Made by a program: the position numbers and the translations under genes. A DNA stretch of 62,499 nt, filler included, from Nitrospinae bacterium RIFCSPLOWO2_12_FULL_45_22 (GTDB lineage: Bacteria; 2-12-FULL-45-22): NCBI GenBank assembly GCA_001803565.1. It is 6 parts of 6 records of this genome, joined end to end, with 100 filler letters (N's around TTAATTAATTAA, not from the genome) between each part and the next. Parts side by side here need not be neighbours in the genome. Positions count along the whole stretch, not along the records: positions 27,402 to 41,617 come from MHDQ01000074.1; 5 more parts are not named here. One strand, given 5' to 3'. The notes below the pieces were generated by a model, which did no database searches, was not told the DNA's origin, and saw only the letters and a list, made by a program, of their open reading frames with translations. Positions 231 to 50,355 of the stretch are shown piece by piece. Each line of letters starts with the position of its first letter. Positions within the stretch are counted from its first letter, which is position 1.

Positions 231-253
231 TCTTAATCTGAGAAGGGAAACAA

Positions 254-5900: not shown

Positions 5901-5910
5901 GAATAGCAAA

Positions 5911-7121: not shown

Positions 7122-7401
7122 CAGAATAGGATCCCCATACCTGAAATCAAGGGAGGCCATCGCCTTCATGGGTTCTTATACCCGTCCTGAGCATAGCCGA
7201 AGGGACCGTCGCAATAACGCATGGGGGCGGCGCCCAGATGCCAGGACAGGATTATTGCTAATTATTTTTTGATAGCGTAGAATAAAACCAAAAGAGGTAA
7301 TAACCGATCTGCCTAAAAAGTTTCAAAAATGGGTTATCTCTGAAAAGCACCGTGGAACACATTAATCTTACTAGATCCCCGGAGGGTAAACTGCATAAGC
7401 G

Positions 7402-7632
7402 CTAACTTAATTTAACAGTCTGATTAAAACAAGTATTAAATATTGAATATCGAACAAGGAATTTCGAATTATGAAGTTTTTTGGGAGCAGGTGACGTACC
7501 GCAACGAATGAGTTGCCCGGCAATGTGATTTCCAACTTTTGTCTTTGGCAAAGACTCCGCTGTGCGAATAATTCTGACGGCAAAATCTATTAAACGTTCT
7601 TCAATATCAAATATTTTGTTCTCCTTCGACAT
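7402..7632 (-). pseudogene. Four-helix-bundle protein, truncated
   Basis: DIEERLIDFAVRII..LPKT..GNHIAGQLIRCGTSPAP then loses homology into heptamer-repeat-derived HNSKFLVRYSIF. Confidence 0.7.
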
Positions 7633-7635
7633 TCA

Positions 7636-8064
7636 TTGATGAATATCAATACGGCGGAAATTACCCTGCTTTTGAGGACATACCCTTTTATTGCTGCGGC
7701 TTACCTATTCGGTTCAAAGGTACATGGTTCAGGTGGCCCCTTGAGTGATCTGGATATCGCGATCTTAGTAGATGAGCAAGCACCTTCTGGCATTGACCTT
7801 CTGCGGATCGAGCTCATCCTTGCCTATGAGCTCCAAAAACGTCTCAACGTGCCGGAAGTTGACCTCATCAGCCTCAATCACCAACGACTAACCTTGCAGC
7901 AGACCGTCTTGCGGACAGGACGGTTGATTTACGATGCTAACCCAAAGTACCGCATCAGGTTCACCCAAAGAGTTATTCAAGCCTACTTGGACTTGCAACC
8001 CACCTTAGAGCTGATGGGTAAATTCCACACCCGGGGCCGGCTGAGGAGGTGCGGTATCCGGTGA
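7636..8064 (+). CDS. MNT nucleotidyltransferase antitoxin (MntA-like)
   Basis: YLFGS-x10-DLD motif, VDLISLN; coupled to the HEPN gene. Confidence 0.85.
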   Translation: MMNINTAEITLLLRTYPFIAAAYLFGSKVHGSGGPLSDLDIAILVDEQAPSGIDLLRIELILAYELQKRLNVPEVDLISLNHQRLTLQQTVLRTGRLIYDANPKYRIRFTQRVIQAYLDLQPTLELMGKFHTRGRLRRCGIR

Positions 8065-8486
8065 GGAAAGAAGATGTGCAGAGCAAGCTCGATATTATTC
8101 CGGAGAATCTGGAAAAACTCGCGATCCTCCGGGCCATGAGCTATGAAGAATTCAAATCCGATTTCCGCAACATCGACTCAGTCTTGCATCGCCTTCAGAC
8201 CTCCATCCAAGCCCTGGTAGATATTGGGGGTTACATAATTGCCTCACTTGGGTTACGGACTCCGAGCGCCAGTGGGGAAGTGATCGACATCTTGGTGGAG
8301 CATAGCCTCATTAAGATCGACCAAAGAGAGCGATTCATTTCGATGATCCAGTTTCGCAATCGTATCGCCTATTTCTATAACAACATTGATCTAAAGATCC
8401 TTTACCGGATCCTTCAAGATGAGCTGGTCGACATCCGCGAGCTTTATCAGACGCTCATTCAGATCATTGAAGAACACCCCGAATGA
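8061..8486 (+). CDS. HEPN/DUF86 toxin (HepT-like), catalytic His replaced by Tyr
   Basis: LQTSIQALVDIG..I, FRNRIAYFY in place of RxxxxHxY; GTGA overlap, GAGGAGG RBS. Confidence 0.8.
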   Translation: MRKEDVQSKLDIIPENLEKLAILRAMSYEEFKSDFRNIDSVLHRLQTSIQALVDIGGYIIASLGLRTPSASGEVIDILVEHSLIKIDQRERFISMIQFRNRIAYFYNNIDLKILYRILQDELVDIRELYQTLIQIIEEHPE

Positions 8487-9277: not shown

Positions 9278-9377
9278 NNNNNNNNNNNNNNNNNNNNNNN
9301 NNNNNNNNNNNNNNNNNNNNNTTAATTAATTAANNNNNNNNNNNNNNNNNNNNNNNNNNNNNNNNNNNNNNNNNNNN
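9278..9377. other. Artificial contig linker
   Basis: 44 N + TTAATTAATTAA + 44 N. Confidence 0.98.
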
Positions 9378-19245: not shown

Positions 19246-19345
19246 NNNNNNNNNNNNNNNNNNNNNNNNNNNNNNNNNNNNNNNNNNNNTTAATTAATTA
19301 ANNNNNNNNNNNNNNNNNNNNNNNNNNNNNNNNNNNNNNNNNNNN
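19246..19345. other. Artificial contig linker
   Basis: N-TTAATTAATTAA-N, 100 bp. Confidence 0.98.
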
Positions 19346-27301: not shown

Positions 27302-27401
27302 NNNNNNNNNNNNNNNNNNNNNNNNNNNNNNNNNNNNNNNNNNNNTTAATTAATTAANNNNNNNNNNNNNNNNNNNNNNNNNNNNNNNNNNNNNNNNNNN
27401 N
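27302..27401. other. Artificial contig linker
   Basis: N-TTAATTAATTAA-N, 100 bp. Confidence 0.98.
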
Positions 27402-27900
27402 ACCCTCTCGCCATTTCTTTGACGGAATACGTCTGGGTTGATAATCAGATACATCTATTATCTCCACCTCATCCTCAGGTCTTGCTTGAGGCGCTTCATC
27501 AGGTCTCTGGATACCCTGTTTCTTGCGTATCCCCCGGGATTTATTTGTCTGCGTGCGACGCACAGGCAGGTTTGAATACCAGCCGTAGTAGCGTACCATC
27601 GGGAATGATTTCTCCGGGATATGTTGGGTAATGGCTGCTGTGAACTCTTCAGCCTGGTACATCTGGAAATTCTTTTTATTCTTCCCCCGGCTCATCCTGG
27701 AATGGTAGATAACTGTGCCCGTCTCCTCGATATAGCTCGTCTTCTCAAGGGAAAAGGTATTGCGGATAATATGCGGATAATATACTGTGATCGGGCCTCT
27801 CTTCCCTCTTCATCATCCCTTACCACCTTTACCCCGTTGTGCACACTAAAGCCGGAATGTCTCCAACTCATAAGATTGAGCAATTACCTTTTTTGGTCAA
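27402..27900 (-). mobile_element. IS91-family transposase pseudogene fragment
   Basis: SWRHSGFSVHN, QYIIR, QHIPEK...VRYYGWYSN across shifted frames. Confidence 0.82.
27546..27571. repeat. Mini palindrome inserted in frame in the transposase
   Basis: Reverse strand ACCTGCCTGTGCGTCGCACGCAGACA. Confidence 0.8.
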
Positions 27901-27930
27901 AATAAGCGAGAAACAAGTAATTTCATCTTA

Positions 27931-28557
27931 TCATCTATTTTTTTCTTCTGTCTTTGATCCTTCTTCTAGTCTCTTTAATAATTCTTCGGCCCTTTTCCGG
28001 TTCTCTTCTGAGCCTTTGCCAAATACCTCCATAATAGACTTTTTTTGCTCTGGGCTCAACGCCCTACGACCCTCACCCTTTTTCTTTGCGGACTGCAATG
28101 CCTCGATAAAAGGGTTAGGTGGGGTAGGTGTGGGTGAAGGGGGAGTAGCTATGGTGGAACCCTTAGGCCCAGGCCCGGATGAACGGGGAATAATATTGAC
28201 CTCTTTAACTGCATAAGGAGAGCCGGTTTGATCTGGGGAGAACACCATATAATAATCTGTCCCTTCCAGTAATTTTTTTAGCCCTTTTTCTAGGGGAAGG
28301 TTCTTGAACTCCATAGTAACCTTCCGTTCCACCGGCTTTTCCATAACGATCTTTATCCCACCCTGTCTGGATATTTCTTCCAGGACACCTTTTAACTGCC
28401 TATCTTGCAACGATACTGATAATAAGCCCTTTTCCAGCGTTACACCCGATGGAGGAGAAATCCCTTCCGGCCCCCCACCTGAAGCGCTTCCTGAAAGGAA
28501 GCAAATGGCATTTATCCAAATAAATAGTGTTAACCCACCAAGCCTTAACCTTTGCAT
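27931..28557 (-). CDS. Exported protein with secretin-N/STN-like domain and Pro-rich linker
   Basis: Signal-like N-terminus; LSVSLQDRQLKGVLEEISRQGGI...VTMEFKNLPLEKGLKKLL. Confidence 0.6.
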   Translation of the reverse strand: MQRLRLGGLTLFIWINAICFLSGSASGGGPEGISPPSGVTLEKGLLSVSLQDRQLKGVLEEISRQGGIKIVMEKPVERKVTMEFKNLPLEKGLKKLLEGTDYYMVFSPDQTGSPYAVKEVNIIPRSSGPGPKGSTIATPPSPTPTPPNPFIEALQSAKKKGEGRRALSPEQKKSIMEVFGKGSEENRKRAEELLKRLEEGSKTEEKNR

Positions 28558-28587
28558 GACCACTAACCTCCCTCTCTTTTGGTTATT

Positions 28588-28600
28588 NNNNNNNNNNNNN
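28588..28600. other. False scaffold gap
   Basis: CTCCCTCTCTTTTGGTTATT duplicated on both sides. Confidence 0.8.
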
Positions 28601-28779
28601 CTCCCTCTCTTTTGGTTATTGGTTATTGGGTCATTGGTCATTTACTAATGACCAGTAACTGATGACGATATGTTCATCTGCGTCCAAAATTTCTATAGTG
28701 TCATTGCAACTTGGTATTAGCCACAAAAATACACGAATGAGCATTAATGAAAGAAGCTGGAATTCGTGTCTATTTGTGG

Positions 28780-29847
28780 CTAATCAGTTATCATTTCTAT
28801 ATAGACTTTTAATTGGGGAAGGAGCTTCTCTTTGTCGAAATCTTTTAGTCTGGCCGATTGGTTTTCTATTATCCTTTCCCTTAAGCCTTGATCCTTTAAG
28901 ATTGTATCTACCAACTCAGCTAATTCTTCATACCGCTTTTCTTTAACCAATACCCCTGACCTGCCCAGGGTATAAGGTACCGCACTGGACTTAAAGGCTA
29001 CAATAGGTAGCTGGAAGAACATGGCTTCTAAAAAGGGTACCCCAAAACCTTCATGCTCACTCATAGACAAAAATATGTGGCTTGAGCGATAATAGGCAAT
29101 AAGCTCTTCCAGGGCTACCTGGCCGGTAAAGATAACCTGATCAAGATTTAGCTTTTTAATGAGATCTTGCAGGGCAATAAAGTATTGCTCCATGCCTTGA
29201 TAAGAACCGACCAATATGAGTCGGGACCTGGGATTAATATATTTATGGTAGAAATAGAAGGTCTTAATAAGGTCTTCATATTTTTTATTAGGTACAATCC
29301 TACCTACATAAATGATATTGATATTCCCATCATTATATTTGCTCATTATCTCCGGAGCAGGTTGTCGGGAAAATTTAGAAAAATCCTGAATAATAGGCAG
29401 AATTTCTACCCGCTTATAGCCTAATGCCTTGAGCTCTTGTAGGTTATACTCCGAGTCTGCCAGGCAGAGGAGTGGCATAGCGGAGAAGTTTTTCAATTCA
29501 GCCCGGCCAGCTTCTAAGAGGTGAGTCAACTGGTGGTTAAACCCTTCGAAAAACCAATGAGGGGTTATATTATGATAGATCATTACCTTCTTATCCGGAA
29601 TCTTTTTGACATAATCCTGTATATCAGTACCTATGGAGTAATGATAGATGGTTATATTTTGGGGCGAACTGACCTCCTTATGCTCCTGGTAATAGAAACA
29701 TTCTTTACTCATACGGGGATGGATATACTGCACATAAATATTTGACTGATATCCCCATTGCCGCAAGAAATTGCGGATTTCCAGGGCATGGTTGCTGATA
29801 GCATCACCATAGTCTAGATTGGGTAACAGTTGGTGAATCTGGATCAA
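28780..29847 (-). CDS. Glycosyltransferase family 4
   Basis: YGDAISN, YHNITP, VGRIVPNK, SEHEGFGVPFLEAM. Confidence 0.92.
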   Translation of the reverse strand: MIQIHQLLPNLDYGDAISNHALEIRNFLRQWGYQSNIYVQYIHPRMSKECFYYQEHKEVSSPQNITIYHYSIGTDIQDYVKKIPDKKVMIYHNITPHWFFEGFNHQLTHLLEAGRAELKNFSAMPLLCLADSEYNLQELKALGYKRVEILPIIQDFSKFSRQPAPEIMSKYNDGNINIIYVGRIVPNKKYEDLIKTFYFYHKYINPRSRLILVGSYQGMEQYFIALQDLIKKLNLDQVIFTGQVALEELIAYYRSSHIFLSMSEHEGFGVPFLEAMFFQLPIVAFKSSAVPYTLGRSGVLVKEKRYEELAELVDTILKDQGLRERIIENQSARLKDFDKEKLLPQLKVYIEMITD

Positions 29848-29848
29848 A

Positions 29849-31579
29849 TTATCCCCTCTTAGCTATAATGGCGTAGTCCTGGTAGCCATAAAGCACTTCA
29901 TTTATCTGATCTATGTTTCGGTTCATAAGTTCTAAGAGCCCCTGGTATTCTTTTCCCAGGCTGTTTTCTGGTATCAGCTTCTGGAGAATAAGCTCCGGGG
30001 AAAAGGGACTCAGGAAAAGGGTCTGGACTTCTTTAAAGCCTAAATATTCCAGGAGGAACCGTAAGGCTTCGGGATGCAAGGGCTTGATGTGAGAAAGATC
30101 AAGGTAGAAATTTCTGATAGCCGAAATAATACTCAACGGATTAATGGTCTCAGCAATAAAGATACCACCGGGCTGCATCTTCTGATAGCAGAGTTTAATA
30201 AATTCCTGCAGAGAAGGGCTAGGTAAGTGTTCCAGGAGTTGAGCAGCGAAGACCCCCCCAAGGGAGGAGTCTGATAATGATGTTAGATAGTCCAGGGCCT
30301 CTTTCTGCTCTACTACTAATCCCCTTTGCTGGCAATAATAAACCATGTCTTCGGAAATATCTATGCCTCTTGCGGGTATGCCTTGCTCTCTCATCAATTC
30401 TAAAAATTCTCCTCGGCCACAGCCCACATCCAATATATCAGACATACCTGAAAAATAGGGGAGATATACCTTGAACCGTTCTCTTATCTCGTCAGGTAAG
30501 CCCCGGTAAGTATGTTCGAAGAGGAAATAAGCGTGGTCCATAAGCCGCTCCTGGTGAATAACCAAACTGCGGGCTAGTTCAGGTTTTAAATGGGTTTTCT
30601 TACGTAGATCGGATAGAATGATATCTAGCCTTCGTTTTAACAGGATATTTTCTTGTTGTAGGGCAGTATATTTCTGGTAAAGGGTTAGGTGCCGATCCTT
30701 CAACTGGGCAAGCTCTTTTTGCAACCCCTCATTCCATTGATCAACCTTATCAAACAGGGCCTGGTGGTGTTGTGCCAACTGTGCATGGTCTTGCCTTACC
30801 TCAGCATTCCACAAATCAACCTTATCAAACAGGGCCTGGTGGTGCTGTACCAGCTCAGCATGGTTTCGATTCAATTCAGCCTGTTGTTGTCTGGTTTCAG
30901 CATTCCAGCGATCCACTTTATTGAAGAGCTGGTCATGTTCCAGCCTCAACTGGGCATGGTCTTGTCTGGTCTCAGCATTCCAGCGATCCACTTTATTGAA
31001 GAGCTGGTCATGTTCCAGTTTCAACTGGGCATGGTCTTGTCTGGTCTCAGCATTCCAGCGATCCACTTTATCGAAGAGCTGGTCATGTTCCAGTTTCAAC
31101 TGGGCATGGTCTTGCCTGGTCTCAGCATTCCACAAATCTACTTTATCAAATAACTCCTCATGCCTTTTGGTAAGGTTATTATTTTGCCCTTCTAATCCAC
31201 CAAGTTTTGCGGTTAACTGATTTATCACCCTGGTAGCGTTAGCATTAAATACCACCTGCTCACCTAATATTAGATTTATGTAAGGCTTGGTTAATCTTCG
31301 TAAGGCTTTTTTAGAGAAGATAATTACCGGCCCCAGGATTCTGCGATGGGACAGGATAGGGACTTTGTTTTTTAACTCCCAGTCAAGATTCATTTGCCGT
31401 AATTGTTCCTGAAAGCCATGATCAGCCGGGCCATGCGCAGAATCTACTTTACCATCCATCTTCTTTACCCATTCTATCTCCTCATCGGAATATACTCCTA
31501 GAGCTTTCTTTCGTCCTATGTTTTCCTTGATCTGTTCCATTATCTTTTCTACTTCTTGATCCTTAATCTCTATATCCAT
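29849..31579 (-). CDS. Coiled-coil class I SAM methyltransferase (glycan-capping type)
   Basis: Amphipathic SHRRILGPVI..KKALRRL, long repeat coil, ILDVGCGRGEF, LLEHL, ETINP, FYLDLSH, YQDYAII. Confidence 0.85.
   Translation of the reverse strand: MDIEIKDQEVEKIMEQIKENIGRKKALGVYSDEEIEWVKKMDGKVDSAHGPADHGFQEQLRQMNLDWELKNKVPILSHRRILGPVIIFSKKALRRLTKPYINLILGEQVVFNANATRVINQLTAKLGGLEGQNNNLTKRHEELFDKVDLWNAETRQDHAQLKLEHDQLFDKVDRWNAETRQDHAQLKLEHDQLFNKVDRWNAETRQDHAQLRLEHDQLFNKVDRWNAETRQQQAELNRNHAELVQHHQALFDKVDLWNAEVRQDHAQLAQHHQALFDKVDQWNEGLQKELAQLKDRHLTLYQKYTALQQENILLKRRLDIILSDLRKKTHLKPELARSLVIHQERLMDHAYFLFEHTYRGLPDEIRERFKVYLPYFSGMSDILDVGCGRGEFLELMREQGIPARGIDISEDMVYYCQQRGLVVEQKEALDYLTSLSDSSLGGVFAAQLLEHLPSPSLQEFIKLCYQKMQPGGIFIAETINPLSIISAIRNFYLDLSHIKPLHPEALRFLLEYLGFKEVQTLFLSPFSPELILQKLIPENSLGKEYQGLLELMNRNIDQINEVLYGYQDYAIIAKRG
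30692..31162 (-). repeat. Six in-frame 75-bp (25-aa) tandem repeats, unit 4 with one extra heptad
   Basis: HDQLFNKVDRWNAETRQDHAQLKLE-type units at aa 140-296; middle units nearly identical at DNA level. Confidence 0.95.
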
Positions 31580-31876
31580 GACAAAGAACCCTCCTTAATT
31601 GCTTAGAAGGCCCCCCTGGCCCCTACGTGCCACAATAAACAACATTAAACAAAAATAATATGTAAAATGAAGTAACAGTTACAATTATTCAATAACCCAA
31701 GCCTAAGCCTAATCTTATCATTATAGGGAGGGGTAAAGCAAGCGGCTTTCTGTCTCTTCAGTGATAAGAATACTTGAATTCAAGGGGAAAAAAGTATAAA
31801 CTTGTGGATTATTAAGAATTTTGTTTGAGCAAAATTTAGAGACAAAAGTTTTTCCCTAAAACTTTTCAGACATTTA

Positions 31877-31997
31877 GCCACAGAGTCACGGAGGACACAG
31901 AGTAACAGCAGGGCCTTGCCCTGCCATAAAGGTAAAGGTTTAAGCAGAGCAAGGCTCTGCAACTACCCTTCCTCTGAGTTATCTGGGCCTCTGTGGC
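31877..31997. repeat. GCCACAGAG-type palindromic element with inner inverted pair
   Basis: AGCCACAGAGTCACGGAG ... CCTCTGTGGC; related copies near 14893 and 32161. Confidence 0.6.
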
Positions 31998-32291
31998 AAT
32001 ATTAAAAAAGCTACTATCTCTCTAAACTGGGGAAAATTTAATGTCTCTTTGCAGACTTAAAAAGGCTATAAACAAAATTCCTGTCAAGAAAGACTGGAGG
32101 AGGTGATGAGCTGACAAAGGGTTTTGCTCTAGCAATAAGAAATTCCCTTCTGTAATTACTTGCCACAGAGACAGAGGGTGGAGAGAGAAAACTTTTTATA
32201 CTCCGTGTTCTCGGTATTTAAGTTTTTTGTTCCCTGCAAACTGTGGTGAGAAAGGCTTACTATTAATTTTCTAAAAAGGAGGTTAAAAGGC

Positions 32292-32846
32292 ATGATAATA
32301 TATCGCTTAAAGAAATATCAACTTTTTCTCTTATCCTTTATTATTTTATCCCTTTTCGGAACAGCTAGTTGTGCAAAAAAAGGCAAGGTAAAACCCGGAA
32401 CAACGGCTGGTATTGAGGGTCCATCAGCCTTAGAAGAAGAGGAGCTTGGGGAGCTGGAGGCAAAGGGGCCAGGGGGATTAGAAGAAGCCGAAGGAGCCGT
32501 TATGCCGGCGGAGGGGTTGGGAGATGTATATTTCGATTATGACAAAGCTATTATTGGATCCGAGCATAGGGCTACCCTAGAAAAAAATGCTCAATGGTTA
32601 AAAGCTAACGCACAAACCAAGATTTTGATTGAAGGACATTGTGATGAACGGGGTACTATAGAATATAATCTGGCACTAGGTGATAGGAGGGCCAATGCGG
32701 CCAGGGATTATCTGATATCTCTCGGTATTGATCCATCAAGGATAGCTACTATCAGCTATGGGGAGGAAAAACCTTTTGACCCTGGGCATAATGAAGAGGT
32801 ATGGTCACAAAATAGACGGGCCCATTTTGTGTTAACTAATAAATAG
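32292..32846 (+). CDS. pal: Peptidoglycan-associated lipoprotein
   Basis: Lipobox TASC, VYFDYD, IEGHCDERGTIEYNLALGDRRA, SYGEEKP, NRRA. Confidence 0.95.
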   Translation: MIIYRLKKYQLFLLSFIILSLFGTASCAKKGKVKPGTTAGIEGPSALEEEELGELEAKGPGGLEEAEGAVMPAEGLGDVYFDYDKAIIGSEHRATLEKNAQWLKANAQTKILIEGHCDERGTIEYNLALGDRRANAARDYLISLGIDPSRIATISYGEEKPFDPGHNEEVWSQNRRAHFVLTNK

Positions 32847-32962
32847 GCGTCTCCATTACATTTCGATATCTACCAATAGGAGAGCCCTTATTGGTCTCAC
32901 CACCGAGCGGCCCAAATTACCCCTTTACAATAGAGCTATGGGTGCGATAGAGAAAAATTTTA

Positions 32963-32991
32963 TTGACAGCCCATAGATAATGGTTTAGCAT
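32963..32991 (+). promoter_or_regulatory. Putative sigma70 promoter
   Basis: TTGACA-17 nt-TAGCAT upstream of the Cys-rich gene and lipoprotein array. Confidence 0.6.
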
Positions 32992-33088
32992 AAAAAAAAC
33001 TCAGAGGGAACGCTTCCCAGCTTAATTAATAGAAGGGAGGGAAACAATCCCTCATTATTTTTTAGTGCTGACTGGAAGGAGAGGACAG

Positions 33089-33346
33089 ATGACATCCCAT
33101 AAAGGGAAAAATCTTTACGTATGTAGGACTTGTGGTATAGCTACAGTAGGGACAGGTCATCTGTGTGACCCAGCGCCATTGCCTAAAGAAGAGGCCTTTA
33201 ATTGTGACTATTGTGGGAAGATTGTTACCAATCCCCGGCATATTTGCAAACCTATGGCCTTAAAAGCCGAATATAACTGTAAGATTTGTGGTCGGGTTTC
33301 AGACCGACAGGATAAACTGTGTGACCCGCATAAGATGGAAGGGTAG
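33089..33346 (+). CDS. Small triple-repeat Cys-rich protein
   Basis: Three CxxCG-x7-(H/K)xCxP units; AAGGAGAGG RBS. Confidence 0.75.
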   Translation: MTSHKGKNLYVCRTCGIATVGTGHLCDPAPLPKEEAFNCDYCGKIVTNPRHICKPMALKAEYNCKICGRVSDRQDKLCDPHKMEG

Positions 33347-33434
33347 GGAGATTTATTTTTTGTAAGTAGCGTACCAAAAAAGTATAGGTTTTTTTAATAA
33401 GATTAATTTTTGACAGGGAAGGAGGTGATAGAGG

Positions 33435-33755
33435 GTGCTCAGAAGAGATAATATTAGATTATTTATGGTGTGCGGACTGGTGTTGGTTTTTATGTGTACT
33501 TTGACAACAGGCTGTACCTGGCGCAGTCACGGCATTAAGGCAAAAGATGAGGCATTAGCGGCTGCCCAGAAGGCAGATGCGGCTGCCCAGAAGGCGATGG
33601 AGGCTGCACAAAAGATTGAAGCCTCTGCCGGCACTATAAAAGAATCAGCCGATAAAACTGAAGCGGCTGCTTCGAAGGCGGAGGATGCGGCAAACCGGGC
33701 AGAAACAGCCGCCGAAAAGACCGAGGCTATCTTTGACAAATTGGGCAGGAAGTAA
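33435..33755 (+). CDS. Alanine-zipper lipoprotein, Lpp/OprI-like, type A
   Basis: Lipobox TTGC, Ala heptads (AANRAE), ends LGRK. Confidence 0.82.
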   Translation: MLRRDNIRLFMVCGLVLVFMCTLTTGCTWRSHGIKAKDEALAAAQKADAAAQKAMEAAQKIEASAGTIKESADKTEAAASKAEDAANRAETAAEKTEAIFDKLGRK

Positions 33756-33829
33756 ATCTGCTAAGGGCTGGGTTCAACCGATCCAGCCCCTACCTCTGTC
33801 TCCGAGAGGCAGCAGAAAGGAGGGGATTT

Positions 33830-34147
33830 TTGGTGCAGTTAAGAAAATTAACAGCCATTATTGTGCTTCTAGGATTTCTATTGGCTAATTTAACAGCTTG
33901 TTGCCCAAAATGGCGTAAAGAGACCCTAAAGGCGAGGGATGATGCTATTGCAGCAGCGGCTAAGACCGAAGAAGTCTCAAATAAAGCATTAGGGGCTGCT
34001 TTAGACTTAGAATCCTCGATTCAAGGGGTTAATGATGCTGCCCAGCGGGCAGAAAATGCTGCCACACGGGCAGTAACCGCGGCTGACAAGGCTGAAGCGA
34101 TAGTAGGAAAGATGGAAAAAGCCTTTGAAAAAAGAGGGAGAAAATAA
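33830..34147 (+). CDS. Alanine-zipper lipoprotein, type B
   Basis: Lipobox LTAC, AAQRAENAA, ends RGRK. Confidence 0.82.
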   Translation: MVQLRKLTAIIVLLGFLLANLTACCPKWRKETLKARDDAIAAAAKTEEVSNKALGAALDLESSIQGVNDAAQRAENAATRAVTAADKAEAIVGKMEKAFEKRGRK

Positions 34148-34238
34148 TTTAATCGTATAGGAATTTTCATTTTAATAATGCGGTTTTGTGGTAGTCGCAG
34201 GTTTTAGCCTGCGTTAATTTAAAGAAAGGAGGTGAGAT

Positions 34239-34571
34239 TTGGTGATTAGATTACATAATATTAAAGGATTAATGGTTTGTATATTGCTGGTGGCTTTTAT
34301 GGTAGCTTTGAACACGGGCTGCTCCTGGCGGGGTCATGTCAACGATGCCATGAAGGCCAAGGATGATGCCGTAGCAGCGGCTGATAAAGCTGAAGCGGCT
34401 GCGCAGAAGGCGGCGGATGCTGCTCAAAAGATTGAGACTTCTGCAGCAACCTTAAAAGAAACGGCTGATAAAGCTGAAGCGGCTGCTTCCGGGGCAGAAG
34501 ATGCGGCAAACCGGGCAGAAACCGCGGCAGAAAAAGCGGAAGCTATCTTTAGTAAATTAGGTAGAAAATAA
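34239..34571 (+). CDS. Alanine-zipper lipoprotein, type A'
   Basis: Lipobox NTGC; paralogue of 33435-33755; ends LGRK. Confidence 0.82.
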   Translation: MVIRLHNIKGLMVCILLVAFMVALNTGCSWRGHVNDAMKAKDDAVAAADKAEAAAQKAADAAQKIETSAATLKETADKAEAAASGAEDAANRAETAAEKAEAIFSKLGRK

Positions 34572-34637
34572 ACCTAGGCAAGGGCTGGATTCAACCCTTG
34601 CCTACCGCTACGATGAGAAAAAGGGAGGTGTGCCGAA

Positions 34638-34949
34638 TTGCGGATAAAAAGATTACTTATTATTCCTCTAGGGTTGATATTTCTGGTTAATTTAGTGGCC
34701 TGTTCCCCGGCCTGGCGTAAGGAAGCCTTAAAGGCAACGGATGCTGCTGTAGCAGCGGCTGATAAGGCTGATACCGCCTCAAGTAAGGCTTTAGCTGCTG
34801 CTCAAGAGTTGGAAGCATCTATCCAAAAAGCCAATGATGCGGGCCAGCGGGCAGAAAATGCTGCCTCCCGGGCAGAAAGCGCGGCTGGCAAGGCTGAAGC
34901 CGTAGTGCAAAAGTTGGAAGAGACCTTTGCTAAAAGGGGGAAGAAATAG
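34638..34949 (+). CDS. Alanine-zipper lipoprotein, type B'
   Basis: Lipobox LVAC; paralogue of 33830-34147; ends RGKK. Confidence 0.82.
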   Translation: MRIKRLLIIPLGLIFLVNLVACSPAWRKEALKATDAAVAAADKADTASSKALAAAQELEASIQKANDAGQRAENAASRAESAAGKAEAVVQKLEETFAKRGKK

Positions 34950-34972
34950 GTACCAGCGATAAGAAGTTCTTC

Positions 34973-35013
34973 AAAAAGCCGGGACTTTAAATAAAGAAGG
35001 CCCGGCTTTTTTT
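34973..35013 (+). terminator. Intrinsic terminator after the lipoprotein array
   Basis: AAAAAGCCGGG-loop-CCCGGCTTTTTTT. Confidence 0.75.
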
Positions 35014-35198
35014 ATCCAAAATTATTCATCACCAGACGCAAAAGGCGCAAAAAGCCGTAAGGCGATAACTCTTCATCCCCTTACGCCTAACCCCTCACTC
35101 CTTACGAGGGACATATCTTTGTGTCTGGTGCATAATTTAGGATTGTGGTGATCAACCACCACAGGGGTTTATAAATCCTATTATAGGGGAGTGAGGTA

Positions 35199-35654
35199 TT
35201 GCAAAAAAGGATTGGCGTTATAGGATCCGCCGAATGCCCTGCGACTACCTCTACCCTGGCAGAAGAAGTTGGCTCCCTGATAGCAGAAAGGGGAGGGGTT
35301 CTTATTACCGGCGGGTTGAGTGGCGTGATGGAAGCTGCTTGTAGAGGGGCCAAAGCCGCTGGTGGCTTGACGGTAGGTATTTTGCCAGGATTTGATGCCT
35401 ATGAAGCCAATCCCTTTGTGGATATACCTATTGTAACAGGGCTCAGTCATGCCCGAAATGTAATAGTAGTAAGGAGTGCCGAAGGAATCATTGCTATTGA
35501 GGGAGGTTATGGCACCTTATCAGAGATTGCCTTTGCCTTAAAGATCGGGAGGCCTATTGTAGGGATAAATACCTGGCAGGTAGTGCCCCAAATTATTCAG
35601 GCCAGAGACGCCAAAGAGGCGGTAAGAAAGATTTTTGAGGCCATTGGCCCCTAA
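35199..35654 (+). CDS. TIGR00725-like LOG/SLOG Rossmann-fold protein
   Basis: TGGLSGVMEAACRGA, VGILPG, ARNVIVV, GGYGTLSEIAFA. Confidence 0.88.
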   Translation: MQKRIGVIGSAECPATTSTLAEEVGSLIAERGGVLITGGLSGVMEAACRGAKAAGGLTVGILPGFDAYEANPFVDIPIVTGLSHARNVIVVRSAEGIIAIEGGYGTLSEIAFALKIGRPIVGINTWQVVPQIIQARDAKEAVRKIFEAIGP

Positions 35655-35751
35655 GAGAAAGCCGTGAAGAGTGGGGAAGTAAGCAGCAACAGGAGTTAAC
35701 ACCTCTCGGCTCACTCGTTACTCCTCACTGCTGACGGTCTAATAGTTCAAG

Positions 35752-36444
35752 ATGGCTTCTTACCGGGCGATAAGTAGATATTTTTTGGTACTTTTTGTAA
35801 TGAGTTTAATAGTGGGTTGTGCTTCTCCCCGCCCCTATAAGGTCTCAACTCCATCAGACCGGGTACGTTATGTACCTAAAAAAGGTACTTATCATACGGT
35901 GAAGAGGGGCGAAACCCTCTGGCAGATAGCAAACACTTATGATGTTTCCATAGAAAGCCTGATAAGGGCAAATAAGCTATCCGATCCCAACAAGATTATA
36001 GTGGGCCATAAGCTGTGGATTCCAGGGGTTGAGGAGGTTTCCCGTACTACCGGGTGGAGTAAGAATCCAGATTTTATCTGGCCCGTGAAGGGGGAAATAA
36101 TTAATTATTTTACTAAATCAGACCGGGAGATACGTCCGGGGATTGATATTGCAGCCCCCCTGGGGAGTGATATAATAGCCGCTTTGCCTGGCAAGGTAAT
36201 TTTTAGTGGGGATGGTCCTGGTACCTTAGGGAAGATGATAATCATTGCCCATCCTGATGCGTTTACTACTATCTATGCTCATAATTTAGAGAACCTTGTC
36301 TCGGTTGATCAACAGGTAAGAAAAGGGGAAAGGATTGCCCGGATAGGTACTCCCCTAAGATCTCCTTCCCCTTCATTACATTTTGAGATCAGGAAAGCCG
36401 CTATACCTTATAACCCTTTGTTTTATCTCCCTAGTAGGTATTGA
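35752..36444 (+). CDS. nlpD: LysM + degenerate M23 lipoprotein (NlpD-like)
   Basis: Lipobox IVGC, LysM HTVKRGETLWQIA, WPVKG, RPGID and SLHFEIR lacking two M23 His residues. Confidence 0.72.
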   Translation: MASYRAISRYFLVLFVMSLIVGCASPRPYKVSTPSDRVRYVPKKGTYHTVKRGETLWQIANTYDVSIESLIRANKLSDPNKIIVGHKLWIPGVEEVSRTTGWSKNPDFIWPVKGEIINYFTKSDREIRPGIDIAAPLGSDIIAALPGKVIFSGDGPGTLGKMIIIAHPDAFTTIYAHNLENLVSVDQQVRKGERIARIGTPLRSPSPSLHFEIRKAAIPYNPLFYLPSRY

Positions 36445-36494
36445 AAGCTAAAAGCGCAAAACGCAAAGGGTAAAACTAAGGAGGGTATTAATTT

Positions 36495-37013
36495 ATGGTA
36501 GAAGAGTTAAAGCAAAAGATTCGGGACATACCAGATTTTCCTAAGAAAGGTATTTTGTTCAAAGACATTACTACTCTGTTAAGTGATGCCGAGGCATTTT
36601 CCCGGGCAGTTGACCTTATAGCTGAGCGGTACAGGGACAAAAAGATAGATAGTATTGTATGCATTGAAGCGCGTGGATTTATATTCGGTGGTGCTTTATC
36701 ATACAGATTAGGTACGGGGCTTATTCCAGTAAGAAAAGCTGGTAAGCTGCCCTATAAGACTTATAAGGCTACTTATGAGCTGGAATACGGGACGGATACC
36801 CTGGAGATCCATCAGGATGCTATCCAACCCGGCCAGCGGGTATTGATTATTGATGACCTTCTGGCTACGGGTGGTACTACCAACGCGGTAGCTAACCTGG
36901 TCAGGCAGTTAGAAGGTGAGGTAGTAGAGCTGGCTTTTTTAATTGAATTGACTTTCCTGGAAGGCAGGAAAAAACTAATAGATTATGAAGTCTTTTCCCT
37001 AATTAAATTCTAA
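36495..37013 (+). CDS. apt: Adenine phosphoribosyltransferase
   Basis: [34 protein letters not shown]. Confidence 0.97.
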
Positions 37014-37014
37014 G

Positions 37015-37127
37015 ATAAGCTATCAGCTAAAAACAATCGTGAGGCATAAGGGGTAAATGGAATTTTACCTCACGCCTTACCCCTTACGACTTACGGAAAA
37101 GCTGATAGCTGACGGCTGAACGCTTAC
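37015..37127. repeat. Nested heptamer palindromes between convergent genes
   Basis: AGCTATCAGCT/AGCTGATAGCT enclosing CGTGAGG...CCTCACG. Confidence 0.65.
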
Positions 37128-37130
37128 ATT

Positions 37131-38453
37131 CTAAGGGAGCTTCAGGATAGCATTTAAGAGTTCTTCTAGTAAGGTTAATACTCCCTGGTAGCCGAGGAAA
37201 GGCCGCTCTGTCAATATAACCTTATCCCATACTGGATAGCCTATATTGATAAAAGGGGTATGGGGTCGAAGCCCTTTTTCTAAGCTGCTACCCAGGATAA
37301 GCTCGGGTTCAGTCTCGGTCAGGGCTTGTTGCACACCATAAAGGTCGTAGTTGGTTAAGATAAGGGGATTTAAGCCGGTGGTTTGCAAAAAGTCTTTAAC
37401 CAGCTTTTCTACCCCGGGGCTATAGGTCTTTAGCCCTAAAAGGGCCGGCTCCAACCCCAAATAATCATAGAAGAATGAGGCCAGGGATAAGGCTGCTGAG
37501 CCTTCAGCAAAGATAGCTACCGAGAGCCCCCTTATCCGCCGGGCCATAGAGATGCGGGAGAGGCGCGGGCGGACTTTTTCTCTTAAGCGACGGGCCTCGT
37601 CTTCTATAAAGCCATCGGCTGATACACCCAGGACAGAAGCAATAGCCCGGAGCCATTCCTGGGTGTTTTGTATACCGTAGGGGGGAAGACGTCCAGCCAG
37701 GTAAGGGAGCCCAAAAACCTCTTCCATCTCCCGGGCTATCAGCCCACCATATTCATCATAAAAGACTACATTAAGGTTTGCTTCTGGTGCCCGTACTATA
37801 TCGGCCAGGGATGTTCCAGCCGTCAGGACAGTATTTATCGCTATCCCTACCCGCTCGAACATCCTTTTTAACTCCTGTAGATCATTATACCAGTTATATT
37901 GCCCTATACTGAGACCGACAATATTTATACTCCTGGGATTCTTTTTTATTGGGGGCTCCATCAATCTATGAACCATAATCTTCACCGCCTGTTGAAACCC
38001 TTCTGCCATGCCTCCGGTAAAGCCACTACTTTCTATGAGGATAGTGGAGGTTCCATCCTGGGGCAGTTCCTTTATTGCTGCCGCAATATTATCTCCTATG
38101 AGGCCCAGGGTACAGCTATTGACGATACCGATAAGGCCGGGGGACTCTTCCTCTTTGATCTTCCTCATGGTGTCTAACAGACGGGTTTCGCTGCCAAAGA
38201 TTACATCTTCTTCCATCAGGTAAGTGCAGGGGACACGGGGTTGGAAAAAATTTTTTAAACTGGCATGCCTCTTAGGGTCAAAAGATAACCCTTCTGGGTC
38301 TTGCAGGTCTATAAAGGATGAGGCAAAGAGCTTACAGCCTATGGGTCCATTGATTAAAGCCACTGCCTCTCGGATACCTTCAATAGCACAGATAGCGCCC
38401 GATAAAGAGCAGGGTAATAAAACATTATTAGGAACAGATTTCGGGCAGCTCAA
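37131..38453 (-). CDS. Nitrogenase component-1-like oxidoreductase, second subunit
   Basis: Cys15, Cys40 (NGPIGC), Cys114 (SCTLGLIGDN), VIFGSE, PYGIQNT, PFLGYQG. Confidence 0.85.
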   Translation of the reverse strand: MSCPKSVPNNVLLPCSLSGAICAIEGIREAVALINGPIGCKLFASSFIDLQDPEGLSFDPKRHASLKNFFQPRVPCTYLMEEDVIFGSETRLLDTMRKIKEEESPGLIGIVNSCTLGLIGDNIAAAIKELPQDGTSTILIESSGFTGGMAEGFQQAVKIMVHRLMEPPIKKNPRSINIVGLSIGQYNWYNDLQELKRMFERVGIAINTVLTAGTSLADIVRAPEANLNVVFYDEYGGLIAREMEEVFGLPYLAGRLPPYGIQNTQEWLRAIASVLGVSADGFIEDEARRLREKVRPRLSRISMARRIRGLSVAIFAEGSAALSLASFFYDYLGLEPALLGLKTYSPGVEKLVKDFLQTTGLNPLILTNYDLYGVQQALTETEPELILGSSLEKGLRPHTPFINIGYPVWDKVILTERPFLGYQGVLTLLEELLNAILKLP

Positions 38454-39763
38454 TCGCCTGTCCTCCAGCGTTCTTTATAATAGGGATTACGTAATAACCT
38501 GGCCCATTCCTTAGCTATCCCTAATGTCCCAGCAGTACCTGTCCGGGGCACCATAGGTATGGTAGAAAAGACCGTGCCAGGAAGGTCCAATTCCAACGGG
38601 TAGAAGGAGAGGCAGAGTTGGGGCTTTGCTTCTTTGACTTCCTCTTCTATCTCAGCCAGAGAAGTCCTCTTTTTTATAGCCAGGCCAGGCCGTGAAATTC
38701 CTAGATTATTTATCCTTTCTGCCGAAGTATCTTCGGGCATAAGGGAGAAAATATTAATGGCCTGGAACTCCATCCCAGCCTGATCAATCAGCTCTACTAA
38801 CCACTCTATATTTTTATCCAGGGTATTAATTATCACCCTTTTGCCAGCCAGAAACATCCTGAGAGGTTGGATAGTTTGGTAAAATCTGCTTTTTTCTTGC
38901 CCGATAAGTTCTGCGGCCTTTTCTTCTTGCCGAAAATACTTTCCTAATTCCTCCAGCCAGGCTTCTGTCTCAGCCAGTCCGGTAGGAAAATCTCGCGCTA
39001 AATATTCCTGACCAAATTTTTCTTTTAATATCTGAGCCACCAAAAGGCCGGTTTCGTATGAGCTAATAAGATTTAGTCGAGATTCAGCCATAGTTTTTAT
39101 TTCTGTCAAAGTAGTTTCTTTAGCAAAGCGGGTATGGACACTAATACCCAGGCAGTCCAACCACCTCTTTATCTCTTTATAGTTCCAGTCTACCTCGGAG
39201 GACATGCTCTTCTCACCCAGGATATTCACCCGGTCAGAGAACCTATCTCTGGGAGGGGCTACCAGGTTTTCAATCAGGTCCCGACAGGCATTCCTCACAC
39301 CCTTCTCGTACCCACCACCCATAAATCCCCCTGACTCAATAACTAATATAGGGATGCCTAACTCCCGCTCCAACTCTTTAGCAATGGCTCTAATGTTGTC
39401 CCCAATGACTTCTACCGCACAGGCAGAGACAATGCTGATCAGATTAGGTCTGTGCCGTTGATAGACTTCTAAAACAACCTCTTTTAATCGGCCTTCTCCA
39501 CCAAATACCATATCCGCTTCCTGTAGACAAGTGCTGACCATACGTGGCGGAGAGAGGGGTACGGCTAATTGGTCATTTATGATCTGTCTGCGCAAGGCCA
39601 TGGATACTTGCATAGCAATATTTTGGTGGATGCAACCTACCGGCCCATGGATTATGACCATACTATCTTTTATCTGCTCAGCTATTACTGCTGCGCCGGC
39701 CATGGTACAGCCATATTGAAGACCTCTGAACCGTGGACTGCTATCTTTACCACATAGCTCCAT
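38450..39763 (-). CDS. Nitrogenase component-1-like oxidoreductase, first subunit
   Basis: Cys19, Cys44 (HGPVGC), Cys115 (ACAVEVIGDN), MVFGGE. Confidence 0.85.
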   Translation of the reverse strand: MELCGKDSSPRFRGLQYGCTMAGAAVIAEQIKDSMVIIHGPVGCIHQNIAMQVSMALRRQIINDQLAVPLSPPRMVSTCLQEADMVFGGEGRLKEVVLEVYQRHRPNLISIVSACAVEVIGDNIRAIAKELERELGIPILVIESGGFMGGGYEKGVRNACRDLIENLVAPPRDRFSDRVNILGEKSMSSEVDWNYKEIKRWLDCLGISVHTRFAKETTLTEIKTMAESRLNLISSYETGLLVAQILKEKFGQEYLARDFPTGLAETEAWLEELGKYFRQEEKAAELIGQEKSRFYQTIQPLRMFLAGKRVIINTLDKNIEWLVELIDQAGMEFQAINIFSLMPEDTSAERINNLGISRPGLAIKKRTSLAEIEEEVKEAKPQLCLSFYPLELDLPGTVFSTIPMVPRTGTAGTLGIAKEWARLLRNPYYKERWRTGD

Positions 39764-39964
39764 AATACAATATCATTTGCCTCCCATACAGGCTGTACGC
39801 ATCCCAGAAGTTTTTTGCAGAATAGTCCTTTACATCTGTTCTTGTTCTATTCATAATAATACCCATAAAAAGATTGGTATCTAGCGGAATTACTAGACGG
39901 ACTTAGTATATCACTATATGTTTTTTCTATCCATTATCTGTTCGACAATAAACAGGTACTAACG

Positions 39965-41449
39965 ATGACAGATAATTTATCCTGCCCGATATGTAAATTG
40001 GAGTCACCAGAATTTCAGATAACTGACGGTACTGGTGATTACGGTGAGGAAATAATATGCAATTGTGCACGCTGTGGCAAGTTTTTGATATCCAAAACAA
40101 CCGCTGCTGAAATCAATAAGAAGGGCATCGATGTTCGTACCAAGGTTTCATCATGGCTTAGAATGCAGAATGAGTTTCAGAAGCCCATGCCAAAAATAAA
40201 GATTAATGATGGTACTTTGGCTGAAATATTAAAGAATTTACCTAGCTATACCCCGTTCCAGAAACAATCTATACTATTAAATGCATTGGCAAACAAATCA
40301 GAATATCCCGGGAAGCCTATTTTATTCATTCCCAGATTTGATTACCCTCTTGCATGGGCAATCAACGAGGATGAATTAGTTTTTCATACAAAATCTCTGT
40401 TGGAAAGGAATTTGATTGATAGTACCGAAAATAATGAACTTAATAAGTATACCCTAACGACAGATATAATTGTGACTGTACACGGCTGGGATTACTTTCA
40501 AAAACATTTATCAAAACAAGTTTCTTCTGGAAATATCCCATGGGAACCTAATTTTCAACATGGGTCATTGGATGCCGAAACACAGGAATCGCATTGGGAT
40601 GTTTTTATTTCGCATGCAAGCGAGGACAAAAAAGATGTAGTTGAGCCCCTAGCAAAAGAATTGAGAAGTCGAAATTTGAAAGTATGGTATGACAAATGGG
40701 TCTTAAAAATTGGGGATCGTTTATTAGAAAAAATCGACCATGGGTTGTTACAGTCGCGCTACGGTATAGTTGTATTAAGCCCCAACTTTTTAAGGAAAGA
40801 CTGGCCCAAAAATGAACTTGATGGTTTAATACAAAAAGAAGTTGGGGGGAGAAAAGTAATCCTTCCTATTTGGCATAATTTGCGTAGAAGTGAAATCATA
40901 TCTTATTCTCCAATTTTGGCAGGCAGGTTAGCAGGCTCAACCGAGACAGGCATTAAGGCATTGGCCGAAGAACTTATTGAGGCTATGGAAGATTTGCCAA
41001 TACAAACAGAAGAAGTAGTTATATCCAAATCATTCGATATAAATGCTTCTTTTAAGAATGTGCGCATTACTGGTGATCTCCATAGATATTCTTTCATTTT
41101 TGGTATAACTCTCAATACCCCACCAGCTAAAAAGAATTTTCTGGTAAGATTATATTGGCCCGCTTTTATAAGAGTAACTATGAATAGAGATTTTACGAAT
41201 AGTCGTACAGTGATTAGGGATGGTAACGACTTTACAGAGTATTCCTATCAAAGTGAACAACGGCTTTATCCTGGAGACACATTCGAGGTCGTGTCTCCAA
41301 AAGGAAGAACTGAACTCGAATATGAGTTTGATCATAACATATGGTCTAAAGTGGAGCATGGTAAACATGAAATTTTATGGGAGATTTATTTTGAAGATCA
41401 ATTGCCAGTAAAAGGATCAATAAACTTTAAACAATTGAACATTTTCTAA
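39965..41449 (+). CDS. TIR-domain protein with N-terminal Zn-ribbon/wHTH-like region
   Basis: CPIC..CARCG; WDVFISHASEDK, VWYD, VLSPNF, WPKNEL; lower GC than neighbours. Confidence 0.9.
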   Translation: MTDNLSCPICKLESPEFQITDGTGDYGEEIICNCARCGKFLISKTTAAEINKKGIDVRTKVSSWLRMQNEFQKPMPKIKINDGTLAEILKNLPSYTPFQKQSILLNALANKSEYPGKPILFIPRFDYPLAWAINEDELVFHTKSLLERNLIDSTENNELNKYTLTTDIIVTVHGWDYFQKHLSKQVSSGNIPWEPNFQHGSLDAETQESHWDVFISHASEDKKDVVEPLAKELRSRNLKVWYDKWVLKIGDRLLEKIDHGLLQSRYGIVVLSPNFLRKDWPKNELDGLIQKEVGGRKVILPIWHNLRRSEIISYSPILAGRLAGSTETGIKALAEELIEAMEDLPIQTEEVVISKSFDINASFKNVRITGDLHRYSFIFGITLNTPPAKKNFLVRLYWPAFIRVTMNRDFTNSRTVIRDGNDFTEYSYQSEQRLYPGDTFEVVSPKGRTELEYEFDHNIWSKVEHGKHEILWEIYFEDQLPVKGSINFKQLNIF

Positions 41450-41467
41450 TAAGGACAGAAATAAAAT

Positions 41468-41524
41468 AGCGAACAAATCAATCCAGCCGACTCGTTATAC
41501 TCGCGGCTGATTTTCACGTTCAAA
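41468..41524 (+). mobile_element. Integron attC-like site
   Basis: R'' AGCGAAC, 5 nt, L'' AATCCAGC ... L' GCTGATT, 5 nt, R' GTTCAAA; one extrahelical base in L''. Confidence 0.75.
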
Positions 41525-41543
41525 CGTTATGCACACAAATTAA

Positions 41544-41572
41544 TTGACAAAAACACAGGTATGATATAAAGT
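41544..41572 (+). promoter_or_regulatory. Putative sigma70 promoter
   Basis: TTGACA-17 nt-TAAAGT before ATG 41589. Confidence 0.55.
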
Positions 41573-41588
41573 AATACTAGAGGTACCT

Positions 41589-41617
41589 ATGGGCAAAAGA
41601 AAAATTGCAATAACTTT
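41589..41617 (+). CDS. Start of a probable RHH/CopG antitoxin (partial)
   Basis: GAGG RBS then MGKRKIAIT, cut by contig end. Confidence 0.4.
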
Positions 41618-41717
41618 NNNNNNNNNNNNNNNNNNNNNNNNNNNNNNNNNNNNNNNNNNNNTTAATTAATTAANNNNNNNNNNNNNNNNNNNNNNNNNNN
41701 NNNNNNNNNNNNNNNNN
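41618..41717. other. Artificial contig linker
   Basis: N-TTAATTAATTAA-N, 100 bp. Confidence 0.98.
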
Positions 41718-50255: not shown

Positions 50256-50355
50256 NNNNNNNNNNNNNNNNNNNNNNNNNNNNNNNNNNNNNNNNNNNNT
50301 TAATTAATTAANNNNNNNNNNNNNNNNNNNNNNNNNNNNNNNNNNNNNNNNNNNN
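50256..50355. other. Artificial contig linker
   Basis: N-TTAATTAATTAA-N, 100 bp. Confidence 0.98.

Follow-up and report, generated by a model that had tools for sequence, protein, structure and literature searches.

The 62,499-nucleotide stretch of DNA analyzed here (the window), which consists of concatenated contigs of Nitrospinae bacterium RIFCSPLOWO2_12_FULL_45_22 (genome G000), encodes at positions 37131..39763 two overlapping genes for a nitrogenase-like component 1, referred to below as D (protein P0001) and K (protein P0002). They constitute a real, intact, rare, and uncharacterized nitrogenase-like pair. We consider it somewhat probable that D and K form the catalytic component of a split three-part reductase, whose Fe protein would be the NifH-like protein encoded on contig C86 of the same genome (C86-H) and which would operate in the style of DPOR, without a cofactor of the L or M type. 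This reading follows from the H-D-K operons (H standing for NifH-like proteins) found in the closest relatives of the pair and from the membership of C86-H in the clade of the H proteins of these operons.

Both D and K are strong matches to the nitrogenase component 1 family PF00148 (252.5 bits, E 8.4e-75 for D; 269.2 bits, E 7.4e-80 for K), and no curated family reaches its cut-off for either protein in a scan of NCBIfam models. The best scores are those of the nitrogenase alpha chain (162.6 bits vs. a cut-off of 486) and NifE (160.5 vs. 505.1) for D and of BchB (155.8 vs. 490.35) and NifE (149.2 vs. 505) for K. Also below their cut-offs are the models for nifD (132.4 bits vs. 653.55, for D), nifK (71.6 vs. 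427.3), and nifN (71.8 vs. 326.8, for K), the DPOR and COR models BchN (65.4 vs. 419.95, for D), BchZ (86.2 vs. 529), and BchY (16.5 vs. 425), and the CfbD model TIGR03282, to which D and K score 44 and 39.2 bits (cut-off, 268.4). The AlphaFold2 model of D (predicted local distance difference test [pLDDT] score, 90.2; predicted template modeling [pTM] score, 0.88) matches MarD, NifE, and NifD about equally well (TM of ∼0.7 at 18 to 23% identity); its top structural match is MarD (TM of 0.71), with NifEN chains at TM of 0.71 to 0.74. In single-sequence comparison, MarD is also the solved structure closest to D (E 5.5e-30), and ChlB is the second-best solved relative of K. Judging by homology, it is near certain that D and K bind each other, and the overlap of their genes resembles that of translationally coupled operon genes; the start position of K is the same in its recorded cluster representative, P0082.

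An exhaustive HMMER search of 1.84 billion representative proteins returned 65 matches at E ≤ 1e-30. Beyond its own cluster, the best matches of D were P0019 (43% identity), which comes from a Tectomicrobia metagenome-assembled genome (MAG), P0020 (36%), and P0021 (33%). A word-index search returned, beyond that cluster, only matches of ≤29% identity, and a scan of genome contigs with P0001 alone found a single distant locus, at 31% identity. Many of the next matches are ∼720 to 770 amino acids long, and all those checked (20 proteins scanned) proved to be NifH-D fusions; the cluster of the fusion P0024 derives from Desulfococcaceae MAGs. The 1,081-amino-acid P0151 is a NifH-NifH-D fusion, an architecture also found in P0391, P0393, and P0398. 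Among 107 unfused matches scanned, 104 have no NCBIfam family at E ≤ 1e-75, the other three being two NifEN fusions and one nitrogenase alpha chain.

A FastTree phylogeny of 119 rows unites P0001, P0019, P0020, and P0021 in a clade of four (support 99); together with a 43-row clade of NifH-D fusions (support 100), this clade makes up a 48-row set (support 91) that stands apart from the NifE- and NifD-like rows. In a quick tree that includes D proteins from fetched loci (47 rows), the partners of P0001 are P0019 and, on a long branch, the L031/P0023 pair (support 96). The D protein of locus L073 belongs to a separate six-row branch of that tree (support 100), without P0001; since it matches MarD (9fmg_A) over its full length at 433 bits, this branch can be regarded as MAR-like. 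A branch of 17 rows, drawn from metagenomes of the gut and other sources, is uncharacterized, with a best solved match of 112 bits. The pair is thus placed in a small clade without a name, which groups with the NifH-D fusion family, apart from the MAR-like, NifE/NifD-like, DPOR, and CfbD proteins. The clade members carry only the source name "nitrogenase component 1" and come from MAGs labeled Tectomicrobia, Chloroflexota, or simply "bacterium." Among 400 further genomes drawn from across the domain, a search with a profile of the clade detected no member; its best score (188 bits) is at about the NifEN level. The phylum is represented in the collection by two species genomes, and the second one (G001, 68% complete) encodes a partial K-like ortholog at a contig start (31% identity, E 1e-45) and, at that completeness, gave no strong NifH-like match. 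No description of the clade was found in the literature, where supplementary tables may list relatives.

The gene context of the relatives was taken from a metagenome scan with the clade alignment, which retained 80 of 566 confirmed loci. Of the relatives with context, L028 and L029 (35% identity) are nearest to the pair; both are H-D-K operons flanked by unrelated genes. A K-like gene comes next after each of the H-D fusions at L030, L035, and L041. At 69 of the 80 loci, D is either fused to a NifH-like stretch or immediately preceded by one on the same strand; the 11 loci without an adjacent H include 5 with <500 nucleotides of upstream DNA, 2 from the window's own population, and 4 others (L067, L078, L084, and L090). 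The detached H of the window is unusual for the superfamily but not unprecedented. Neither the flanks of the pair nor the loci of its relatives have a conserved neighbor that hints at a substrate, in keeping with the preliminary description of this DNA, made from the sequence alone, which assigned none. At L031 (positions 64-6459), D and K precede a same-strand gene for a 1,284-amino-acid protein that passes the CobN cobaltochelatase cut-off (963 vs. 822 bits), a possible tetrapyrrole link for the L031 branch. At L041 (758-7066), a gene for a LarC-type nickel-insertion protein (PF01969, 445 bits) is found two genes on from the H-D fusion and the K-like gene.

The source genome (3.67 Mb in 321 contigs, 85% complete) contains three strong NifH-like domains, one in C86-H and two in a tandem NifH-NifH (H-H) fusion on contig C80; D and K are the only PF00148 genes found in it. 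In a careful 47-row tree, C86-H falls into a 7-row clade (support 98/93) with P0198, the H proteins of L028 and L029, the Chloroflexi MAG protein P0197, P0201, and P0210. Because of this shared clade with the H of the relatives' H-D-K operons, C86-H can be taken, with moderate confidence, as the putative cognate Fe protein of D/K. Its best nonself match among 5.8 billion proteins is P0197 (61% identity). P0197 and the D-like clade member P0021 both come from a Chloroflexi MAG with a longest contig of 8643, which suggests that they share a contig.

In the same tree, the C80 fusion halves pair with each other as nearest relatives (99/97, a join flagged for long branches) and fall outside the C86-H clade. 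The fusion had been a candidate for the cognate reductase and was downgraded on the basis of the H trees, which place C86-H, rather than H-H, with the operon-encoded H proteins. It is followed on C80 by a nifB fragment that scores 192.5 bits to TIGR01290 over model positions 6 to 156 and has, by reading of the sequence, the CxxxCxxC radical-SAM and HPCY motifs; no second piece of nifB was found in the genome assembly. A phage-type integrase gene and a helix-turn-helix gene are located just upstream of the fusion. Tandem H-H proteins of ∼556 to 636 amino acids account for ∼80 of the 120 clusters listed, under source names that include NifH, ArsA-related, AAA ATPase, and hypothetical protein; one H-H protein, P0311, with 87% identity, is encoded on a 52-kb contig. 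None was detected when the same 400 other genomes were searched with the C80 fusion, where the single match covers one domain, and no description of such tandem fusions was found in the literature, whose supplementary tables may list relatives.

In D, Cys19, Cys44, and Cys115, and in K, Cys15, Cys40, and Cys114, occupy the three P-cluster ligand columns of the respective subunits; the columns for D were defined by aligning the D-clade profile (alignment A1) to solved structures. The three D residues are invariant in all six rows of the clade and in every one of the 50 rows of a broader alignment. The segment LNLISSYET (D residues 230 to 238) has Ser235, the second Ser of LISSYET, at the column to which both MarD Cys270 (VGFCYTL, 9fmg numbering) and the cofactor Cys of Clostridium NifD (LVQCHRS) align. 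At the NifD His442 column, traced through a full-length NifE alignment on our assumption that NifD and NifE correspond there, D has Ser400 (VFSTIP), and Gln, Thr, Arg, or Lys is found across the clade. Independently of any alignment, the only His residues of D are 39, 46, 104, and 210, so that neither a His442-type ligand nor one of the MarD His428 type is possible in the C-terminal half of the protein. In the six-row clade alignment, the C-terminal two-thirds of D contains no invariant Cys or His; Cys384 (PQLCLS) is common to P0001, P0019, and the P0020 lineage and is absent in P0021 and P0023.

The K subunits are more variable. In an alignment of nine K-type proteins, the three ligand columns read Cys/Cys/Cys in the window K, P0114, and L031, Asp/Cys/Cys in L028 and L029, and Asp/Cys/Pro in the K proteins of three H-D fusions. 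K Cys76 is part of a conserved RVPCT motif; 7 of the 8 rows spanning this column have Cys there. The six-Cys set of the window pair is compatible with a P-cluster, and the variation of the K ligands among the relatives leaves open a simpler cluster in the lineage. On these points, the preliminary description was exact: it had the two overlapping ORFs (open reading frames) at their precise coordinates, numbered correctly the three Cys residues that each protein shares with the NifD/NifK pattern, and noted that LNLISSYET lacks the equivalent of NifD Cys275 and that there is no His442-like motif. Its view of the pair as an uncharacterized reductase also stands, with no curated family claiming D or K and with D in an unnamed clade apart from the MarD-labeled and NifE/NifD-like rows.

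If the split-reductase reading is correct, D and K would be a component 1 of the D2K2 type, with C86-H most likely acting as its ATP-hydrolyzing Fe protein. The H dimer would bind ATP and pass single electrons from its [4Fe-4S] cluster to a cluster at the D/K interface, which the six Cys residues would hold either as a P-cluster-like [8Fe-7S] cluster or as a pair of [4Fe-4S] clusters. From there, by analogy with DPOR, COR, and CfbCD, the electrons would pass straight to an organic substrate bound in the D/K cavity, with no NifB-derived cofactor of the L or M type in D. Our best guess for the substrate is a tetrapyrrole-like or other conjugated molecule; the hints for a tetrapyrrole are weak and consist of the matches of K to BchB and ChlB, the CobN gene that follows D and K at L031, and the HemB encoded in the genome, which indicates that tetrapyrrole precursors are made.

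Several observations weigh against this reading. The evidence for the partnership of D/K with C86-H is phylogenetic, and percent identity cannot pick the partner, as C86-H is similarly close to the H proteins of L028 and L029 (54 to 55%) and to those of distant loci of very different nitrogenase-like proteins (NFLs; ∼54 to 56%). For an Fe protein, a reductase operon is an unusual setting: C86-H belongs to a same-strand run (L012, positions 1459-8441) that includes OYE-type, nitroreductase-like, FadH/OYE-type, alpha/beta-hydrolase, and benzoyl-CoA-reductase/2-hydroxyacyl-CoA-dehydratase-like (BCR/HAD-like) genes, and it overlaps the nitroreductase-like gene by 14 nucleotides. It may have a second partner there, or it might serve these unrelated reductases instead of D/K. 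L028 and L029 share no neighbor beyond H-D-K; the CobN link is seen in one relative, itself on a long branch, and a search of the 85%-complete genome gave no CobN (PF02514). Nor is the six-Cys set constant across the family, given the Asp/Cys/Cys pattern of the sister operons and the Asp/Cys/Pro pattern of the fusion K proteins. Finally, in the available text of PMC13474568, organisms that have only simple-cluster NFLs are without NifB; by that logic, a nifB next to the H-H fusion in a genome whose only detected PF00148 genes are those of this pair points to a complex cofactor.

Accordingly, the pair could instead be a NifB-dependent enzyme, which we regard as unlikely, with an L-cluster-like cofactor supplied by the C80 NifB and held by noncanonical ligands, the H-H fusion serving as reductase and/or maturase, and an activity of the MAR or group IV kind, such as C-S or small-molecule reduction. 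The connection between NifB and complex clusters drawn in the accessible part of PMC13474568 speaks for it, as do the strongly NifB-like character of the C80 fragment, two genes after the H-H fusion, the absence of competing PF00148 genes among those found, and the H-H-D triple fusions, which indicate that a tandem H works with D-like proteins of the superfamily. The halves of the C80 fusion, however, fall outside the operon-H clade that holds C86-H, and the H-H/nifB cluster sits beside an integrase gene and may be a separately acquired island; at 85% completeness of the genome, another D/K partner may also be unassembled. Cys384 could be an alternative ligand, but D has Ser at both known ligand columns and no His in its C-terminal half, and the clade has no further invariant Cys or His. 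NifX (PF02579) was not found in the 85%-complete genome, and NifB-like genes are present at only 2 of the 80 loci, L073 and L090, both of which the D tree assigns to its MAR-like branch. A broader formulation, that the pair is a distinct unnamed lineage, sister to the NifH-D fusions, with a P-cluster and either a cofactor-free or a noncanonically ligated NifB-derived site, served in trans by the C86-type NifH and/or an H-H pseudodimer, appears rather improbable to us as a whole. Should a single-chain H-H and NifB indeed feed D/K, a nitrogenase-type enzyme would be assembled and driven in a novel manner.

It is very unlikely that D and K are a relic, no longer functional after the loss of the adjacent H, perhaps through insertion of the low-GC TIR-domain gene upstream. 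No H gene occupies the usual position, and the DNA upstream of D is a 35%-GC stretch with that defense-type gene, but both reading frames are open over their full length, with the ligand Cys residues intact, and the other genome of the phylum has kept the K-like ortholog. Near-identical DNA of the pair recurs in 20 runs from 16 studies with groundwater, soil, or sediment labels; nine full-length protein variants from other samples differ at 1 to 4 residues, never at a ligand Cys. Contigs from 4 of these runs show 16 single-base differences with no indels and no stops, and 8 of the 16 are synonymous, compared to 23% expected by chance (one-sided binomial p = 0.018), which is modest evidence, from small numbers, of purifying selection on the pair. 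Moreover, expressed unlinked NflDK pairs are on record in Rhodopseudomonas palustris, according to the available part of 10.64898/2026.08.20.746119. The idea of a decayed piece of a known operon thus holds only by half: H-D-K is the normal arrangement in the relatives and H is detached here, but the genes themselves are not decayed.

A role as a scaffold or maturase like NifEN, in which the pair would hold or process an Fe-S cofactor precursor for another protein, is extremely unlikely. The best solved match of the clade profile is a NifEN fusion (9i0g_A, 182.6 bits), NifEN chains are among the best structural matches, and nifB is present in the genome. Yet the assembled genome has no recipient nitrogenase-like enzyme, the relatives are self-contained H-D-K operons, and the score of D to the NifE model is far below the cut-off. 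D has Ser at the Cys275 column, which we take to be that of the L-cluster Cys of NifE, and K retains all three Cys residues, unlike NifN, which has a single Cys.

The contig that carries the pair (C74) spans 14.2 kb, positions 27402-41617 of the window. The contigs are joined at paired runs of 44 N's (9278-9377, 19246-19345, 27302-27401, 41618-41717, and 50256-50355), and since they are separate contigs, gene neighborhood across these joins is meaningless. The flanking genes are those named in the preliminary description, an apt-like gene and a TIR-domain gene (Table 1). Its further statement that no Fe protein gene or nifB flanks the pair is true of the 14.2-kb contig and does not extend to the genome, which has the three NifH-like domains and the nifB fragment elsewhere; the search for NifH-like genes that it had called for uncovered C86-H and the C80 fusion, and the remote electron donor that it had proposed has a candidate in C86-H.

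Table 1. Positions of the D/K pair, its flanking features, and the candidate partner genes (window positions unless a contig is given)
Feature	Position	Strand	Remarks
nflD-like gene (P0001)	38450..39763	-	437 amino acids, ATG start; alpha-type subunit, nitrogenase-like component 1
nflK-like gene (P0002)	37131..38453	-	440 amino acids, TTG start; beta-type subunit
D stop codon/K start codon overlap	38450..38453	-	4 nucleotides, TTGA; from ORF coordinates
apt-like phosphoribosyltransferase gene	36495-37013		Convergent with K
D/TIR divergent intergenic region	39764..39964	.	201 nucleotides; GGGAGG ∼16 nucleotides before the D ATG
TIR-domain gene	39965-41449	+	Divergent, upstream of D
C86-H, NifH-like	G000:C86:2840-3670		276 amino acids; P-loop, both switch motifs, and both cluster Cys kept (sequence reading)
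NifH-NifH tandem fusion	G000:C80 (L011) 4415-6169		584 amino acids; P-loop and both cluster Cys kept in each half
SnoaL-like gene	G000:C80 6260-6652		After the H-H fusion
nifB fragment	G000:C80 6665-7165		First 167 codons; ends at contig end

The TIR protein (494 amino acids) has a Cys-rich N-terminal stretch, and its best defense models are PDC-S66 (196.8 bits) and ThsB (113.6 bits). Its gene lies in DNA of 35% GC, compared to ∼45% around it, which suggests an acquired defense gene sitting where the relatives have the H gene. The intergenic region between D and the TIR gene is presumed to contain the promoter of the D-K operon. Two sigma-70-like sites were found there on the minus strand (39933-39905 and 39883-39856), although the number of such sites over the scanned stretch is not above chance (7 vs. 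5.0 ± 2.5 in shuffles). Elsewhere on the contig, four tandem small paralogous genes (33435-34949, plus strand) encode proteins of 106, 105, 110, and 103 amino acids of two alternating subtypes, each with a lipoprotein-like N terminus and an Ala/Glu/Lys-rich helical body; the one that was scanned had no Pfam match. A 576-amino-acid methyltransferase is encoded at 29849-31579 (minus strand), and its N-terminal half is made up of about six tandem copies of a ∼25-residue repeat (DKVDRWNAETRQDHAQLKLEHDQLF).

Nitrogenase-like enzymes have repeatedly turned out to catalyze unexpected chemistry, such as F430 synthesis, C-S bond cleavage, and isethionate reduction, and the question of which metal clusters they require is still open in the field, as stated in the available text of PMC13474568. 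The window pair is a compact case, combining six P-cluster-type Cys residues and no recognizable cofactor ligands with a nifB and two candidate Fe proteins in the same genome, and it bears on whether a P-type cluster alone supports catalysis in this lineage. The NifH-D and NifH-NifH fusions are large families that are left out of current classifications; the groups listed in PMC13474568 are IV-A to IV-F, V, and VI, and the words "fused" and "fusion" do not occur in its available text.

The ligand pattern of the pair has been known since 2012, as have H-E fusions, and it is the clade, its kinship with the H-D fusions, and the detached H that are new to the literature as searched. In the accessible text of Dos Santos et al. 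(PMC3464626), NifE/N-like pairs with three P-cluster Cys residues in each subunit and without both FeMo cofactor ligands are described as "yellow" lineages. The window pair shares with them the adjacent alpha- and beta-type PF00148 genes, the 3 + 3 Cys residues, and the lack of Cys275 and His442 equivalents; the pattern is a descriptive category rather than a clade. Those lineages, compared here by their description only, come from Proteobacteria, Archaea, Firmicutes, and Fibrobacteres, whereas the phylum of the window pair is represented by two genomes in the collection, and the H of the pair is unlinked. The likeness to the NifH-D fusion family comprises the C-terminal P..EGWR motif, the three D-type Cys residues, and the K-like gene that follows the fusion; the window pair has neither a fused nor a neighboring H, and its K has Cys/Cys/Cys where the fusion K proteins have Asp/Cys/Pro.

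Among the characterized enzymes, MarDK (group IV-C; PDB entries 9fmg and 9d9u) similarly has P-cluster-type Cys residues in both subunits and is driven by a NifH-like ATPase. The ligands of its L-like cluster are MarD Cys270 and His428, as given in the available text of PMC13474568. D is 21% identical to MarD, has Ser in place of Cys270 and no His428-type ligand, and has no marB or nifB at its locus. The proposed likeness to DPOR (BchNB/ChlNB) is by analogy and would consist in an interface cluster that passes electrons straight to an organic substrate, with no complex cofactor. The DPOR cluster uses an Asp from BchB (PMC13474568, in the part available), while the window K has Cys in all three columns and scores far below the Bch cut-offs; bch genes are absent. 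CfbD (group IV-B) is a single-subunit homodimer, unlike the two different subunits of the window pair. The same available text describes the group VI NFLs (Elusimicrobia type) as having ≤4 of the six P-cluster Cys residues, in genomes without NifB, and this description sets them apart from a pair with all six and a nifB fragment in its genome. It also gives Nfa (IV-A) a Cys/His pair and notes that Isr (IV-F) departs at the P-cluster Cys residues; judged by these descriptions, the window pair fits neither. The closest parallel for the detached H is found in Rhodopseudomonas palustris, whose unlinked NflDK3, and also a pair in Rhodospirillum rubrum, are 52 to 56% identical to the organisms' own MarDK1 and lie among sulfur-metabolism genes, according to the available part of 10.64898/2026.08.20.746119. 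As in the window, these D and K genes are without an H gene of their own, and H genes are located elsewhere in the genome; D of the window is, however, ∼20% identical to MarD and has no sulfur-metabolism neighbors.

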